64,000 bases of DNA from Thermoproteota archaeon (lineage in GTDB: Archaea > Thermoproteota > Thermoprotei_A > Sulfolobales > Ignisphaeraceae): positions 64,001 through 128,000 of the forward strand of contig JAUQPB010000004.1 of assembly GCA_030550585.1 (NCBI GenBank), read 5' to 3'. Below are positions 1,947 through 20,324 of this stretch, piece by piece (positions within the stretch are counted from its first letter, which is position 1; each line of letters begins with the position of its first letter). The notes beneath the pieces are model-generated. The model was not told where the DNA came from. It ran no database searches and saw only the letters and a list, made by a program, of their open reading frames with translations. Position numbers and translations under genes: made by a program.

Positions 1947-4812
<2,866 letters not shown>

Positions 4813-14042: not shown

Positions 14043-14769
14043 GAATGAGCTTAGAAACAGGATATGGAGAATCATGGAGGAGAGGAACATAGCTAGGTTC
14101 CCCAGACCAGTGTTCGGCAGAATACCAAATTTTGTTGGTGCGGAAGATGCTGCGCAAAGACTTGTCCAATCCGATCTATTTAAGAGGGCGATGGTAGTCA
14201 AGGTGAATCCCGATGCTCCGCAGAAACCCGTTAGAGAAGCTGTTTTGAAAAGCAACAAAGTTTTGGTCATGCCAACACCCAGAATCTCCAGGGGTTTCCT
14301 ACTTCTAGACCCCAAGAAGATAAGCCCAAACCTCTATACAGTTGCATCAACAATCCAAGGCGCTTTCAAATATGGAACATTTGTAGACCCCCAAGACCTT
14401 CCAGAGATAGATCTGATTGTTGCCGGCTCTGTTGCTGTCAGCATCTATGGCGAGAGACTTGGAAAAGGGGAGGGGTACTCAGAACTCGAATACTCAATAC
14501 TAAGAGAATTTGATAAAGCCTCTGAAGAAACCCCCATAGTAACAACTGTACACGATGTGCAGGTTGTTGAGCACCACATACCCCTAGCACCATGGGACTT
14601 CACAGTAGACTACATATTCACACCAACAAAAGCAATGAAATGCCTAGGCGAAAAGCGAAGACCACCTGGAATAATGTGGGAGCATCTACCAAAAGAAAAG
14701 ATAGAGTCTATACCAATACTCAAAAAACTAGCGCAGCAAAGAGATGCTGCGGCAAACCCGTGGGTCTAG
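14011..14769 (+). CDS. 5-formyltetrahydrofolate cyclo-ligase family protein
   Basis: [40 protein letters not shown]. Confidence 0.9.
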
Positions 14770-15011
14770 CCCCTATCAACCTTCTTAATCTCATAATCAT
14801 TAAAGAACTTTCCAATGAGTCCAATAATGGAGTCTAAAACCTTTACACTATCCAAAGTGTTTTCAACTATTATCAAGAGCCTGTCATGAGATGTTATAAC
14901 GGCTTTGACGCTCTTTCTAATCCACGGATCTCTATCCATAAGCTCCTTCAACTCTTTTCTAAGTAGATGGGCAACAATGCCAGGGTTTCTACGCTCAATC
15001 TCTACGAACAT
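14766..15011 (-). CDS. Small hypothetical protein
   Basis: 81-aa ORF convergent with 5-FCL, protein-like composition. Confidence 0.65.
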   Translation of the reverse strand: MFVEIERRNPGIVAHLLRKELKELMDRDPWIRKSVKAVITSHDRLLIIVENTLDSVKVLDSIIGLIGKFFNDYEIKKVDRG

Positions 15012-15205
15012 CTCTATTCAGTAAAGAGCATACTTTAGAGAGGCTAATATTACACAGCTAAAATTGGTCGCAGATCTCAGTGTCTGTTAAGCAGGTAATA
15101 TAGAAGTTAATGTTCTATTTATACCAGATCCACTGATATTCTACAGGCAGATAACCAGAAAGTCTTTTATAGTTCTACAAAAGAACCTCTATTCGATGAA
15201 CATCC

Positions 15206-15388
15206 ATGGAATTGGGTATAAAAGATTTTTTATGGGATTTTGCTATTGCGATACCTCTATTCATATACGTCATGCTTATAGTGTCTATAGTGACAAAACG
15301 TTTATACGACTATATGGTTGGGAGGGGGGTTAAGAGAAACGTTGCTGTTTACTACAATAGAAAGATTATACATGTTTCAACAGGTGGG
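15206..15388 (+). pseudogene. Dolichol kinase / cytidylyltransferase-family membrane protein, 5' part (interrupted)
   Basis: YYNRKIIHVSTGG family motif ends at the insertion; frame continues at 19185. Confidence 0.85.
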
Positions 15389-15464
15389 CGTGGACAATCT
15401 GCGTGGCTATGGCTAGTGCCACAAGTGCAAATACTATCACAAACGCTATTCGCTTCAGCAACAT
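15389..15464 (-). pseudogene. Truncated 5' end (signal peptide) of a secreted-protein gene at the insertion's left edge
   Basis: ATG 15464 gives MLLKRIAFVIVFALVALAIATQIVH(A), cut at the junction. Confidence 0.6.
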
Positions 15465-15553
15465 GGGGCACCCGTTACCATTAGATGCGTAGAAGAAATT
15501 AAACACCCCGGTCACCACAACAACTAGCAGTGTATATAAACATCTTGTAGCTA

Positions 15554-16138
15554 GTGCATCTACTGGTAGAGAGCATGGGCATGCAGGCGGCAAAGGCCTT
15601 GAATGCCCTGAGGCAGATCCAGAGCAAGAAGATATTCGGGCTCGAGGTCACGGAGCTGGGCAGGCGCTTCACCTCGAGGCCCGCGCTGGAGGACGCCCAG
15701 GTCGTTGGAGACACAATTGTGCTCCCAACGATGGACAGGCTGTGGAGGGGGTTCATACCCGTCTATCCCCACCTCTTCATAGCCAACTACCCCGCAAAAG
15801 ACGTCGACTATGTGGGCGACCACGCATACGACATCCTGAAGCTGCACCCGCTCTACAAATCTGTTGAGGAGGTCGACGGAAGGGTGTGGGAGTGCACAGT
15901 CGAGCGCGTAGACGGTGTGAGGTTCAGGTCTGTGGACACCTTCGAGACAGCAATTCTCCTGAACCTCGAGGTGAACCCGGGGATAACATATGGCGGGTTG
16001 CTCAGCATACTCTATGATCTGGTTCCAGACGACATGCCCGAGAAGAAGGATGCTGGGAGGTGGAAGATACTCGAAATTGCATTGGCCCAGCTCATAGGGA
16101 TGCTGGCCTACGAGGCCAGCCTCATAGAAATCATCTGA
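15554..16138 (+). CDS. GC-rich hypothetical protein (possibly a fragment), passenger DNA
   Basis: 194-aa ORF; two hand-counted 60-mers are 58% and 65% GC versus 37% in a line of the host gene. Confidence 0.55.
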   Translation: MHLLVESMGMQAAKALNALRQIQSKKIFGLEVTELGRRFTSRPALEDAQVVGDTIVLPTMDRLWRGFIPVYPHLFIANYPAKDVDYVGDHAYDILKLHPLYKSVEEVDGRVWECTVERVDGVRFRSVDTFETAILLNLEVNPGITYGGLLSILYDLVPDDMPEKKDAGRWKILEIALAQLIGMLAYEASLIEII

Positions 16139-16351
16139 TTTTCTTCTCCACATACACACTTAGCATGTAATTTCATTGGTATAGTAAACGGCTATTATTC
16201 TACATGCGCTTTAATTCTACCATCTAACCTCTACATAAGTGCTAGTTTAGGTGAGGATGATATGGCTTGCCGGGATTCTAGATTTATCTAATTTATTAAC
16301 TAGATTTATTAAGTAGAGAATAGTTACAGGTTAGTTAAGCTCTGATGGATT

Positions 16352-17206
16352 GTGGTGGTGCATGTGAGTGGGGAGAGGACAAGGTGTAGAAATACTACTC
16401 TCGTGCTTGGGGTGATCATTGCTATTCTCATAGGGGCTCTCGCCGGAACACTATACTACAGCAACATGCTCTTGAGTAGCAAGGACTCCTACATCGAGGA
16501 TCTGCAAAACCAAAACAGAGAGCTACAGAACCAAATCAGTGTTCTGAGAAATTGGCTAATTGGAAACAAAACATATTGTGAAAAAGAGATTGCGGATTTG
16601 CAAAACCAAAGCAAAGAGTTGAATGAGCAGATCAATATCTTGGCTAGCTGGCTAGCTGGGAATAGAAGTAGCTACGAAGAGAAAATTAAGAGTTTGCAAA
16701 AGCAGATCACAGACCTGCAAAACCAGGTCACATCCCTAGAGACACTAAATATGCAACTCCAAACTTGGTTAGAAGGAAACAAAACACTGCTTAGAGGACT
16801 TAGCGAGAATATGACAGCTTGTGTGAGAACGGTTAAGGAGTTGCAAAGCCAAATAGACAAACTTCAGAAACAGGTAAGCATGTTGACGTCGATTGTAAAC
16901 CAAGAAGAGACGGCCACACTTGAGAAGGATAAAACAATAAATCTGCGTCCAAGATCCTATCTAGGGTTCTCATATTACACACCTTATGCTGGCTACATCA
17001 CAATTACCTTTACAGCTACGGGGGCTGTGAAGCTTTGGGTTGGAAGCAGTTCAACAACACCCACATACTACTTTAGCTATTCCCCCAGTGAAACCTATGC
17101 AACAATCACAATACCTGTTACAAGAGGCACAACATACATCGTCTTTGAAAACCCAAGTTACTTCTCTGGAGTAACCATTACATATACCATTACATACACA
17201 TACTAA
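16352..17206 (+). CDS. Membrane-anchored coiled-coil surface protein
   Basis: N-terminal TM helix, heptad repeats with three WLxGN(K/R)(T/S) motifs, C-terminal beta-rich domain. Confidence 0.8.
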   Translation: MVVHVSGERTRCRNTTLVLGVIIAILIGALAGTLYYSNMLLSSKDSYIEDLQNQNRELQNQISVLRNWLIGNKTYCEKEIADLQNQSKELNEQINILASWLAGNRSSYEEKIKSLQKQITDLQNQVTSLETLNMQLQTWLEGNKTLLRGLSENMTACVRTVKELQSQIDKLQKQVSMLTSIVNQEETATLEKDKTINLRPRSYLGFSYYTPYAGYITITFTATGAVKLWVGSSSTTPTYYFSYSPSETYATITIPVTRGTTYIVFENPSYFSGVTITYTITYTY

Positions 17207-17539
17207 ACCCCAAGCCAGTAGACAGCCCTCGACACAAAGCAAAATTGGAATCGACTTAACCACAGGTTTAGGCAGTGCAGAGAACCGTGACTCACAGAGC
17301 TAGCAAAATGGTTGTGGGAATTGAAGACATAGTATTTGTCTACTTAACTACTCCAGACATTGAAAAAGCCTGAGATAATATCATGGGGGTGCTGTGCACC
17401 CATCGAAGAAAGCAGCCAAGACAAATCCCCACTACAATTTTTTCTTACAACCCTGTATTTGCAGTTGCCTAAACAATTTTCTGGGGGCAGAAAAGTTTAT
17501 TAGGGTTGCTTAGGGAATTTTATAGTCGGTTGGGGACAT

Positions 17540-17884
17540 GTGTCAGAGAAGTTGTTGAAGCCTAGAGAGTTCTGCAATATTGTTGGTATTAGCTATAGGA
17601 CTTTCAAGCGCTGGGTAGCAGAAGGTAGGATACGCGTTGTGAGGACGCCTACTGGTAGAATAAGAGTGCCGTATTCTGAAGTCGAGCAAATTCTTGGAGG
17701 AAGACCAGGGCTGGAAGTTAAAGTAGAGCAAAATGTGACTTCGAGAAGGCAGTTATTGGTTGAAGTCTTCCTAATAGTAGCCGAGCTCTTTGCAGAAAAG
17801 TTCTATGGTTTAGAAAGCCGTAAGAAAGAGAAGTTTCTCGAAGGACTCAGAAAACTACTAGAGGAGGTTGAGAAGGGTGGCTAG
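17540..17884 (+). CDS. tnpA: IS607 TnpA derivative lacking the serine-recombinase catalytic core
   Basis: MerR/excisionase-like HTH (LLKPREFCNIVGISYRTFKRW...TPTGR) joined to a C-terminal LVE..FA.KFYG helix; no YARVS motif. Confidence 0.75.
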   Translation: MSEKLLKPREFCNIVGISYRTFKRWVAEGRIRVVRTPTGRIRVPYSEVEQILGGRPGLEVKVEQNVTSRRQLLVEVFLIVAELFAEKFYGLESRKKEKFLEGLRKLLEEVEKGG

Positions 17885-19175
17885 GGTAGCGAGGACTGTT
17901 GTTGTTAGAAGCACACCTTTGCCGAAGAAGGTATTCAGGGTTTTCACAGAGCTTGAGGGAATGTACCGCAACATAGTTGAGCAGCTAGCCATGTATGCTG
18001 TGAGAAGCAATCTGAAGAGCTTCACAAAGCTGAAGGCTTTGAAGTACCGCGAAATGCGAAACCTATATCCACAGCTACCATCACACTACGCCTACACAGC
18101 ATGCCAGGATGCCTCTATGAGGGTTAAGAGCTTCCTGAAGCTGAAGAAGCTTGGCTTAGCTGAGAAGGAGTATCCAGAAGTCAAGAACATCTCTATTTGG
18201 CTTGACGACCACTTGTGGAAGCCCAATGGCCTAACCTCTATCAAGATAGCTACTCACAAGGGTTGGGTAGAAATCGAGTTAGAACCTCACAAGCAGTACT
18301 GGAAGTATATCAACAGAGGCTGGAAGCTTTCTTCAGAAGCCAAGGTAAAGCTCGATAAGAAGAGCAGGCAACTACTAGTCTACTTAACCTTCGTCAAGGA
18401 TGTCGAAGAGTATGAGCCTAGAGGGTTTCTGCCCGTTGATGTTAACGAGAACAATGTTACGGTTCTAGTTGATGGTGTAGCCTACTTGTTCGAGACGAAT
18501 TTAGAGAAGGTTGTTCTGGGATACTACTATCGTAGGAAGAGGGTTCAGGAGAAGTATGATAAGCTCTATGGTGTTGACTCAAGGATTAAGAGAAAGGCTA
18601 TGAGGAAGCTCAAGGAGCGTGAGAAGAAGAGCGATTTAAGGTGGAAGGTTGCTAACATAGTTGTCAAAGTTGCATGCAAGAAGCAGTATGCTATTGTCCT
18701 TGAGAAGCTCGGTAAGAAGCCTGCTAGCAGTATGATTAAGAGAATCAAGGATAAACAGCTTCGCCATAGAATATTCCAGGCATCTTTCAGAGGTGTTCAG
18801 AGAGCTATTGAGGAGAAGGCTAGGGAGCGTGGTGTTCCAGTAATCTACGTGAACCCGAGAAATACTTCTAAGCTATGTCCAGTTCACAACACCGAGATAA
18901 TCTATAGCAATAGCTCCAGGATTGGGAGGTGTAGTAAAAGCGGAGAGTCCTGGCACCGTGACGTAGTAGCTGTGTGGAACCTTCTTCTAAGAGCCCGCCT
19001 AGGCGATGGGGGCAGTGCTCCAAGCCTAGGTGGGTCTATCCTAGATGTGACCCGCGTGCCGTTCGGGTCGAACGCCACCCATGAACCCGCAGGAATACCA
19101 AAATCCCTGTGGGCGAGGTGGAAGTCCCTAGAGGCAACCTCAAGTGTCCCTAAACTATGTAAAACAACCCTCTAG
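17868..19175 (+). CDS. tnpB: RNA-guided endonuclease TnpB
   Basis: RuvC D (PVDVN), E (IVLEKL), D (HRDVVA); NTSKLCPVH zinc-ribbon region; overlaps the tnpA end. Confidence 0.93.
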   Translation: MRRVARVARTVVVRSTPLPKKVFRVFTELEGMYRNIVEQLAMYAVRSNLKSFTKLKALKYREMRNLYPQLPSHYAYTACQDASMRVKSFLKLKKLGLAEKEYPEVKNISIWLDDHLWKPNGLTSIKIATHKGWVEIELEPHKQYWKYINRGWKLSSEAKVKLDKKSRQLLVYLTFVKDVEEYEPRGFLPVDVNENNVTVLVDGVAYLFETNLEKVVLGYYYRRKRVQEKYDKLYGVDSRIKRKAMRKLKEREKKSDLRWKVANIVVKVACKKQYAIVLEKLGKKPASSMIKRIKDKQLRHRIFQASFRGVQRAIEEKARERGVPVIYVNPRNTSKLCPVHNTEIIYSNSSRIGRCSKSGESWHRDVVAVWNLLLRARLGDGGSAPSLGGSILDVTRVPFGSNATHEPAGIPKSLWARWKSLEATSSVPKLCKTTL

Positions 19176-19200
19176 GGACAAACGGTTATAGCGCTTCTAG
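18995..19200 (+). ncRNA. Predicted TnpB omega/reRNA (right-end scaffold plus flanking guide)
   Basis: Hairpins GACCCG/CGGGTC (19049-19069), CCCGCAGG/CCTGTGGG (19086-19113), TGTCCCTA/TAGGGACA (19145-19180); position typical of TnpB RNAs; ends approximate. Confidence 0.6.
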
Positions 19201-19676
19201 TTCCAATGATATTCAGAGAGCCTTTCACACCATTTGTCTTCGCTCTCATACTAGCGGTAATAACTCTGTATCCGCATTTGAAGGGAAGTGAATTAAGCTG
19301 GTTTCAAACAAAGGACAATGCATATGAGGTGAATTTCTGTATTGCTTGGGGATCCTCTATCCTTGTCCTGTGGCTCTACCTCAACAATGCGTGGATATCT
19401 ATTTTGCCGGCTCTCTTCATATCGATAGGCGATGCTGTTACAGGTGTTGTGAGAAACGCTATATTTGGTAAAAGGACCAAGCACTGGGTTGGAAACCTAG
19501 CAATGGCTGTAACCACGATACCGATAGGCTATAGCCTAGCGGGAATCCCAGGCGCAATAGCAGGTGCCCTTGCAACAATAGCAGAGAGGTTTGAGTTTGG
19601 CTACATAGACGACAACATACTGATAACAATAGTCTCTATAGCAACTCTAATAGCTTTAAAAAGCTGGCTACCCTAA
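19185..19676 (+). pseudogene. Dolichol kinase-family gene, 3' part
   Basis: VIALLVPMIFREP..., SIGDAVTG, KRTKHWVG, AERFE..IDDN motifs. Confidence 0.85.
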
Positions 19677-19682
19677 ACAGTT

Positions 19683-19733
19683 AGAGATGACTGCGATCTC
19701 CGATTCTGAATTGTGATGAGGCCCCGCAGTGAG
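19683..19733 (+). ncRNA. Candidate C/D-box sRNA
   Basis: GAGATGA - 15 nt - CTGA - GTGATGA - 9 nt - GTGA; C and D boxes imperfect. Confidence 0.4.
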
Positions 19734-19961
19734 GAGAATATCCACATGTTTACTAGGTAGCTATAAACACCTTGGACATTAGCCAGCATTTACAGTGATG
19801 ATAAATAGTGTTGCTGACAATATCTCCGAGTACCAAGAAGAGGATAGTGGTAGTAGTCTGGGAGGCTTGCAGAGTCAAACCTGGTGAGAGCTGGTAATGG
19901 TGTACTCATCCTTCAGGACGAGGAGGCTAGAGAATAGACTAGAGAATAGAACTGTTCATTG

Positions 19962-20324
19962 CTACGGTTTTAGATATTTTTCTATTAGTTTCAAAAACTC
20001 ATCATCTCTACCTGTTTTTACTAGATACAACATTTCATCAACATCAACACTCTTTATGTGTCTGGCTATGGGATTGAGAAACAGCGTCTTGAACATTGTG
20101 TCTGCTGTAAATGTGTTTTTGTAAAATGATAAAACTATTTGGTAGAGTCTGCTGGGAGATGTGAAGAGAAGCGACATGGCATCTAATCCTGTAGCTGATT
20201 TGCAAAGCACATTTAGGATGTGCATAGCCCCGGGAACAGCCTTAGAAGCATAGCTGTATACATGGTCTCTGAGGCTCTGAACCTCACGGCTTTGAAACAA
20301 CCCCCAGTTATCCCTCCCATCCAT
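19962..20324 (-). CDS. Hypothetical protein
   Basis: Helical ~120-aa ORF; ATG 20324 preferred. Confidence 0.6.
   Translation of the reverse strand: MDGRDNWGLFQSREVQSLRDHVYSYASKAVPGAMHILNVLCKSATGLDAMSLLFTSPSRLYQIVLSFYKNTFTADTMFKTLFLNPIARHIKSVDVDEMLYLVKTGRDDEFLKLIEKYLKP

Follow-up and report, generated by a model that had tools for sequence, protein, structure and literature searches.

The subject of this work is a 64,000-nucleotide stretch of the genome of a Thermoproteota archaeon from the Ignisphaeraceae (GenBank assembly GCA_030550585.1, contig JAUQPB010000004.1, positions 64,001 to 128,000 of the forward strand), referred to here as the window, in which an insert of 3796 bp (positions 15389-19184) splits a conserved 224-aa membrane gene, as read from the open reading frames (ORFs). 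The right part of the insert, about 1.7 kb long (17483-19185), is an insertion sequence (IS) of the IS607 family with a truncated tnpA and a full-length tnpB, and the left 2.1 kb, denoted here as the cargo, is foreign to that family. The insertion is exact and has an empty counterpart in a sister species; the IS has its canonical left end within the insert; the outer junctions carry the dinucleotides GC (left) and GG (right); and the tnpA product has lost its catalytic domain. On balance, and with no great confidence, the insert is considered here the product of a single event, in which cargo and IS were mobilised in trans as one circle that integrated once.

An Exact Insertion and Its Empty Counterpart

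The two halves of the membrane gene share one reading frame and together encode the 224-aa product. Read directly from the sequence, the left junction (15388|15389) is ..ACAGGTGGG|CGTGGACAAT.. and the right one (19184|19185) is ..GGGACAAACG|GTTATAGCG.. In the genome of a sister species (G007), whose flanks are 96-97% identical to those of the window, both halves abut at positions 1500|1501 of locus L025, and the site reads ACAGGTGGG|GTTATAGCG. Compared with this empty site, the window contains exactly 3796 additional bp, with an ambiguity of one base (G) and with no loss or duplication whatsoever, in agreement with an earlier note on this DNA, which had described a clean insertion whose removal restores a 224-aa frame. 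The gene was matched in 22 of the 25 genomes searched (G000 counted), and 20 of the 21 other matching genomes present an uninterrupted frame of 219-249 aa, the remaining one (G008) showing a single internal TAG, which bears out the expectation of that note that the gene would be intact in relatives. Its naming of the gene as a kinase fared less clearly: the G007 orthologue falls among archaeal clusters called "dolichol kinase family" (score 0.97) in a protein atlas that assigns names automatically, and neither Pfam nor NCBIfam yielded any match. Because the label comes solely from automatic cluster names and both Pfam and NCBIfam are blank, "kinase" is taken as a lead to the identity of the gene, not as a test of it.

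Contigs assembled independently from public sequencing runs were aligned to positions 14500-20000. In run X2, a single contig (14838-19061) spans the left junction plus the inner boundary between cargo and IS at 17483, and a second one (19105-19631) spans the right junction. In run X3, which belongs to another study, pieces of the cargo and of the IS were recovered at 100% identity, with 0 differences, the piece over 17483 reaching just 28 letters on the cargo side. The danger raised in the earlier note, that the junctions were misassembled and 3.8 kb wrongly joined into the gene, was ruled out by these independent bridging contigs, since contigs built from two runs extend across both outer junctions and the inner boundary, and the third run provides identical cargo and IS; its probability is considered negligible. 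Run X1 yielded a joint that omits exactly the 3796 bp, that is, an empty allele (the shorter side of the joint measures 29 letters, against a 31-letter rule), and the right flank of this allele presents three differences from the window (19226, 19380 and 19475), which are the same as those in the filled X2 contig. The insert is likely a presence/absence polymorphism inside one hot-spring population. The joint omitting all 3796 bp is the sole relevant one listed for four runs; alleles in which the IS or the cargo stands alone are missing from the joints listed, with the proviso that contigs drop rare forms and that 23 loose ends lie outside the listing. At position 15379 the window has an A where G007 and all X1, X2 and X3 contigs have a G; there are slight differences between the assembled genome and the run contigs.

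The Insertion Sequence Occupies the Right Part of the Insert

When the whole insert was compared with 40 relatives, every DNA match but one fell within positions 2094-3796 of the query, the exception being a 42-nt match in G031 (query 221-262, inside the cargo; E 4.8e-4). All 10 related copies begin at query positions 2094-2108, corresponding to about 17483 of the window, and read N|GG(GG)CAG.AAA..TTTATTAGGG, the DNA preceding the G-run being different in each of them. At the other end, the 11 aligned copies (window included) all stop at ..ACGG, 10 of them at ..ACAAACGG, and diverge right after. The IS proper was delimited as 17483-19185 because related copies start and stop there and because end motifs cluster there: YTAGGG/TTRGGG is found at 17500, 17510 and 17530, CCCTAR at 19126 and 19148, and YTAGGG at 19172, the background being about 0.5 motifs per kb. 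The earlier note had placed the true left end inside the insert, at the point where other copies would start, with tnpA and tnpB confined to the right 1.7 kb and preceded by an inner TGGGGG and a TATA-type box; all of this agrees with what was found, as TGGGGG (17482-17487) and a TTTATTA box are present and both genes lie within 17540-19175.

Published work is cited here by PubMed Central identifier. GG is the insertion site of IS607, which favours (G)GG and creates no duplication (PMC6188088), and the transposases of the family exchange strands across a GG that is common to the joined ends and the target (PMC6188088, PMC4058570). The element in the window conforms to this family in that tnpB lies downstream of tnpA and both ends carry short repeated motifs but no terminal inverted repeats. 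Its insertion lacks duplication, took a GGGG target and shows GG at the right junction and a G-run at the inner left end, and the left junction of the whole unit is GC. That the target is a G-run of the IS607 type (PMC6188088) had been proposed in the note and is upheld. In addition, in 9 of 16 related left-end flanks, inspected by eye, the base before the G-run is T, and because of this the subfamily seems to share a TGGG-type target preference.

Among 80 related TnpB loci, a strict motif search located the left end in 9, the right end in 28 and both ends in four, giving element lengths of 2008, 2009, 2003 and 1697 bp, versus 3796 bp for the unit described here. In a DNA search of the own genome, neither the IS nor its ends turned up a second time, so that the IS is single-copy, and the boundary of the cargo opposite to it lacks the second IS copy or end expected of a composite transposon. 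An empty site for the related G008 copy, sought in connection with the canonical 2-base overlap, was not recovered, the unique flank having no counterpart in 16 genomes of the genus.

Two other arrangements of the ends were observed in relatives. Dozens of solitary, tnpB-less copies of the IS right end, 130-190 nt long and guide-RNA-like (query 3602-3796), are scattered through their genomes (for instance G008:C1:112699-112880, G007:C1:404760-404954 and G013:C38:3713-3899), and zero were found in the own genome. At loci L049 and L054 (G001:C16, about 36700, and G020:C97, about 4080), right-end-like sequence (..CTAGGGCTTACGT and ..GAGGGCTCGACCA, respectively) is joined via a G-run to a left end, an arrangement that reads as circle-junction-like or tandem, and chromosomal.

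A Transposase without Catalytic Domain and a Full-Length TnpB

A point of importance for the mobility of the IS came from alignment of its tnpA product with the 216-aa TnpA of locus L014, which matches the IS607 transposase family NF033518 with 247 bits (cut-off 110). The window protein lacks the serine-recombinase catalytic domain of about 100 aa, since the block bearing IYARVSS, present in L014 and L005, has been deleted, and its identity to the G008 copy (78%) extends over residues 1-55 only. It is, in consequence, not an IS607 transposase in the sense of a serine recombinase with an N-terminal MerR-like helix-turn-helix (HTH). Because the catalytic domain is gone, the IS is a non-autonomous derivative of the family, unable to move itself; moreover, the resolvase domain PF00239 gave 0 matches in the own genome, 12 of 14 control genomes being positive. 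The earlier note is corrected on this point by these results. A diverged copy in G001, the 1697-bp element, has the same short tnpA layout, and this recurrence in another species suggests that the short form may be a propagating non-autonomous lineage moved in trans, rather than a recent deletion. The HTH-only tnpA is common to window positions 17540-17884 and L095:3621-4050, the two copies, from two species, being only 77% identical.

TnpB is recognised by PF07282 (52 bits, cut-off 26.3) and TIGR01766 (68.7 bits, cut-off 32), and reaches 93 bits with NF040570, under the cut-off of 100. The other tnpB genes of the own genome are only about 30% identical to it. Two such further genes (G000:C4:312121-313158 and G000:C3:251553-252590), with 411-aa frames and about 30% identity, were noted in this genome without a serine recombinase. 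Around 19008, at a G-run within tnpB, the contigs of the filled allele from X1 and X2 are one G shorter than the window; the missing G would frameshift the last ~55 codons of tnpB, and may reflect either true variation or a discrepancy between assemblies in the length of the homopolymer. The right end of the IS overlaps the end of tnpB, and RNAalifold, applied to the 195 nt before the right terminus in 10 sequences, predicted 48 pairs, 20 of them with changes on both sides, the fold having been predicted from the same alignment. No Rfam match was obtained for this region.

The Cargo and the Search for Its Origin

The left boundary of the insert carries none of the IS end motifs and cuts an ORF after 25 codons. 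This minus-strand stub starts with the ATG at 15464 and encodes MLLKR followed by a hydrophobic run, resembling a signal peptide. The earlier note had a minus-strand gene cut at the end of its signal peptide: the 25-codon stub does reach the junction, and the signal peptide is a reading of the translated letters. The two remaining cargo ORFs appear to be orphans. For the 194-aa product, only its own cluster was found among 5.8 billion proteins, and weak homologues were found in five genomes among 350 others of the class (top identity 42%). The GC content of this ORF is 55-59%, against 42-45% in its surroundings and 40-46% in the remaining cargo and the host; the cargo itself looks mosaic. The 284-aa protein has homologues in 3 of the 40 relatives, as well as six metagenome homologues (47-73% identity) on short contigs. 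Pfam and PHROGs returned nothing beyond coiled-coil noise for the cargo proteins, no recombinase was recognised in the cargo, and no replication gene was recognisable with Pfam, PHROGs or NCBIfam. An origin of the cargo on a plasmid was considered and dropped, the neighbours of the G034 homologue having no family assignment.

The ends of the cargo were also inspected. There are no YTAGGG/CCCTAR motifs within 15389-15600, and similarity between the cargo left end and the left or right end of the IS is not above that of shuffled sequences. GG is found on both flanks of the cargo. An inverted repeat of 13 nt (12 of 13 positions complementary) lies at 15422-15434 and 17455-17467, 33 and 15 nt inside the cargo ends; its score was reached by 2 of 2000 shuffles, yet it is 1 of 11 such pairs in 2.2 kb. 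If the cargo is closed into a circle via one G, the cut minus-strand ORF is extended by 45 codons. An extension of this size was matched by 1453 of 20000 shuffles (7%), and the 350 other genomes of the class yielded no homologue for it at E below 0.018; being unremarkable and without homologues, the idea that the closed circle makes the cut ORF whole was rejected.

None of the collections searched provided a second context for the cargo, though this absence does not amount to proof. It is single-copy in the own genome by DNA search, and its DNA is missing from the 40 relatives except for the 42-nt match mentioned above. Through its proteins, no second context was found in the 40 relatives, in the 350 other genomes of the class, among the 5.8 billion proteins or in protein scans of metagenome and genome contigs; viral contigs gave one weak match (28%), and a 28-nt exact cargo pattern found no second context in metagenome contigs. 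At neither the protein nor the DNA level does any part of it occur in the 80 related TnpB loci; the cargo is not a regular arm of this IS. This agrees with the view of the note that the left 2.1 kb is not a normal left arm, being likewise absent from the related copies and, apart from the 42 nt, from the relatives. The features of the insert and its flanks are collected in Table 1.

Table 1. Features of the insert and the interrupted gene (window coordinates)
Feature	Position	Strand	Basis
Interrupted gene, 5' part; 61 codons; dolichol-kinase-like label	15206..15388	+	ORF list; continuous with 19185-19676 in G007
Left junction; target T-GGG then C; dinucleotide GC at 15388-15389	15385..15389	+	G007 comparison; bridged by X2 contig
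Cargo; 2094 bp foreign to the IS family	15389..17482	.	No DNA match in relatives except 42 nt; absent from 80 TnpB loci; no end motifs
5' stub; 25 codons plus 1 base; signal-peptide-like N-terminus; cut by left junction	15389..15464	-	Translation of minus-strand ORF
Cargo ORF; 194 aa; probable start ATG 15581; family-less	15554..16138	+	ORF list; profile searches negative
Cargo ORF; 284 aa; N-terminal membrane helix, coiled coil, C-terminal beta-rich domain	16352..17206	+	Coiled-coil matches only, mostly below cut-off
Canonical IS left end; G-run, CAGAAAAG, TTTATTAGGG, repeated TTAGGG/TTGGGG motifs	17483..17545	+	10/10 related starts; motif clusters
tnpA remnant; 114 aa; MerR-type HTH plus C-terminal tail	17540..17884	+	Pfam HTH_17; alignment to L014 TnpA
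tnpB; 435 aa; full length	17868..19175	+	Pfam Cas12f1-like_TNB; TIGR01766; collinear with 432-aa G008 copy
Structured right-end region; omega-RNA-like scaffold; ends ..CTCTAGGGACAAAC-GG	18992..19185	+	11/11 right ends; RNAalifold
Right junction; dinucleotide GG, then target TTATAGCG..	19184..19185	+	G007 comparison; 11 aligned right ends; bridged by X2 contig
Interrupted gene, 3' part; 163 codons plus stop	19185..19676	+	ORF list; match to relatives

How the Insert May Have Arisen

In the history favoured here, we infer one step rather than two, a circle, a transposase acting in trans and a donor. In the donor replicon, the IS would have been preceded by 2.1 kb of unrelated DNA, with two orphan genes as well as the 5' stub of another gene. 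An IS607-family serine transposase, supplied from elsewhere and acting in trans, would have joined the canonical right end (..ACAAAC-GG) to a non-canonical GC site upstream, bypassing the true left end at 17483, and the resulting circle of cargo plus IS would have been closed 2.1 kb upstream of that end. This circle would have recombined once with the GG of the T-GGGG target in the membrane gene, the outcome being GC on the left, GG on the right and a target that is not duplicated. The junctions can be read against this scheme: the right one is canonical (..ACAAAC-GG-TTATAG), the empty site is T-GGGG-TTATAG, and the left one reads GG-GC-GTGGAC. Because the left dinucleotide differs by one base from the GG required there by conservative exchange, only one G overlaps, and the "cryptic GG" that the earlier note had located at the left junction turned out to be a GC with a single shared G. 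When a circular donor with GC was offered to the IS607-family transposase of Clostridium botulinum, TGGG sites were kept and the products carried GC at the left end and GG at the right end (PMC10690162, a preprint). The GC and GG junctions at the TGGGG target in the window match these published products of GC-core circles. As to the subsequent fate of the unit, TnpB, guided by the DNA to the right of the element (TTATAGCG..), could cut the empty allele, which has a G-rich motif just upstream, and repair from the filled copy would duplicate cargo and IS together, so that retention of the cargo through TnpB homing is plausible in the light of published homing.

Several facts weigh against this history. 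In the Clostridium element, mismatched end dinucleotides (GG and TT) abolish excision (PMC10690162), and, since mismatched ends lost excision there, excision of GC with GG would be inefficient. The genome has today no transposase capable of the job. The donor locus predicted by the earlier note, in which the cargo would abut the IS and continue past the left junction into the intact secreted gene, could be located in none of the collections searched, and the circle joint from 19184 to 15389, which it also foresaw, is not among the joints listed for the same four runs, where rare forms are dropped by the contigs. Furthermore, the observed runs (three G on the left, five G before CAG) would equally be left by two canonical GG/GG events, and the 13-nt inverted repeat could hint at ends belonging to the cargo itself. 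Given that no donor or circle was found, that mismatch abolishes excision and that the G-runs fit two steps, confidence in a single circle was held just past the point of balance.

The same G-runs speak for two independent canonical insertions, that of a mobile 2.1-kb unit into T-G-[GG] followed by that of the IS into the T-G-[GG] re-created on the right side of this unit, or the opposite order, as the arithmetic gives GG at every junction and a TGGG-type motif (PMC10690162) both times, with a cargo that is flanked by GG on each side and has the inverted repeat near both its ends. The note had listed an independent nested insertion, recognisable by ends proper to the cargo, as a refutation of its proposal; the cargo has no end motifs, and a canonical two-step history would yield the same sequence. 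Such a history has to face a cargo without recombinase, without clusters of end motifs and without a second copy in the collections searched, the lack of an intermediate allele among the joints listed, and the need for one nucleotide to have been struck twice in a 1.76-Mb genome that offers thousands of TGGG sites, estimated to be improbable by chance. Since each half is of foreign origin and present once, in a genome with neither a resolvase-domain gene nor a transposase, two independent arrivals at one nucleotide were considered less likely than one, and this origin was judged unlikely. A little less likely again would be that the IS entered first, canonically, and that the transposase then captured a separate circular DNA exactly at the core of the IS left end. 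This would account for the base-exact contact between the cargo and the canonical left end, IS607 transposases require little of the partner site besides the dinucleotide (PMC4058570, PMC6188088), and circularisation of the cargo through one G lengthens the cut ORF. That lengthening, as stated above, is common among shuffles and has no homologue, no IS-only allele is among the joints listed, and a transposase would have been needed for two events in a genome that has none. Least probable among the three appears the entry of the IS into a 2.1-kb circular replicon at a non-GG (GC) site, with integration of the fused 3.8-kb circle via its right-end junction. The final sequence would be the same if the left junction keeps the dinucleotide of the donor and the right one that of the target (PMC10690162), and all three cargo ORFs would be whole on such a circle; it requires, on the other hand, a non-GG target, at odds with the strict GG requirement in PMC10690162, the cargo has no recognisable replication gene, and the extension of the ORF is supported neither by the shuffles nor by the homologue search.

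Should the one-step origin through a trans-mobilised circle be correct, it would represent a natural case of gene transduction derived from the loose partner-site requirement of IS607 transposases, and a natural instance of a GC/GG junction signature so far reported from engineered donors only. A minimal IS with an RNA-guided nuclease could then turn into a cargo transposon, with TnpB homing spreading the picked-up DNA as well, and this would offer a route to passenger-gene transposons in archaea. As a generalisation, put forward more tentatively than the history of this particular insert, IS607-family transposases in nature may recombine their right end with an arbitrary upstream non-GG site, packaging neighbour genes into a unit that TnpB and its guide RNA then defend and copy. 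If two steps were involved, the insert would be an ordinary nested insertion. The insert also provides a natural presence/absence difference, with a filled allele here, its exact empty counterpart in a sister species and, probably, an unfilled allele within the same hot-spring population, on which excision, homing and the fitness cost of losing the dolichol-kinase-like gene could be studied.

Comparison with Known Systems

The window element resembles the IS607 family (IS607, IS1535 and the archaeal ISC1904/ISC1926 type) in the order of an HTH-bearing tnpA followed by tnpB, the absence of terminal inverted repeats and of target duplication, the terminal G-runs, the short repeated motifs in both ends and the (G)GG target (PMC6188088, PMC4058570). 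It differs in the loss of the catalytic domain, in the length of the unit (3796 bp versus about 1.7-2.0 kb), in the 2.1 kb of unrelated DNA beyond the canonical left end and in the GC at the left junction. The closest parallel at the level of the junctions is the IStron of C. botulinum, with which the window shares a TGGG-like target, GC on the left and GG on the right and, putatively, a guide-RNA scaffold ending in ..CGG, a guide taken from the right flank and TnpB homing, which has been proposed to keep the element (PMC10690162). That system worked in E. coli, from an engineered donor that retained the two natural ends, whereas the window would be a natural archaeal case in which the left partner is no IS end.

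Circles made of one IS copy plus neighbour genes are also tied to an IS607-family element, ISChh1, pairs of which bracket cfr(C) cassettes in Campylobacter coli (PMC10770853). There, two copies in the same orientation bracket the unit, unlike the window, with its single copy and no IS sequence at the left boundary. The movement of neighbour genes by IS607 elements, which the earlier note put forward as not known from archaeal IS607 elements, is in this form already in print for bacteria. In the case of archaea, a review of integrated elements gives composite transposons with passenger genes as undetected (PMC6563490). A search of a library of openly accessible articles turned up no description of a lone IS607-family copy that carries flanking DNA. 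Transduction of flanks by reading through an end, in which a true end plus a surrogate end moves the adjacent DNA, is known from ISEcp1, IS91/ISCR and the 3' transduction of L1, elements whose chemistry is of the DDE, rolling-circle or retrotransposition type and whose movement is usually marked by duplications or by specific signatures at the ends. In contrast to all of them, the chemistry behind the insert in the window would be that of conservative serine recombination.

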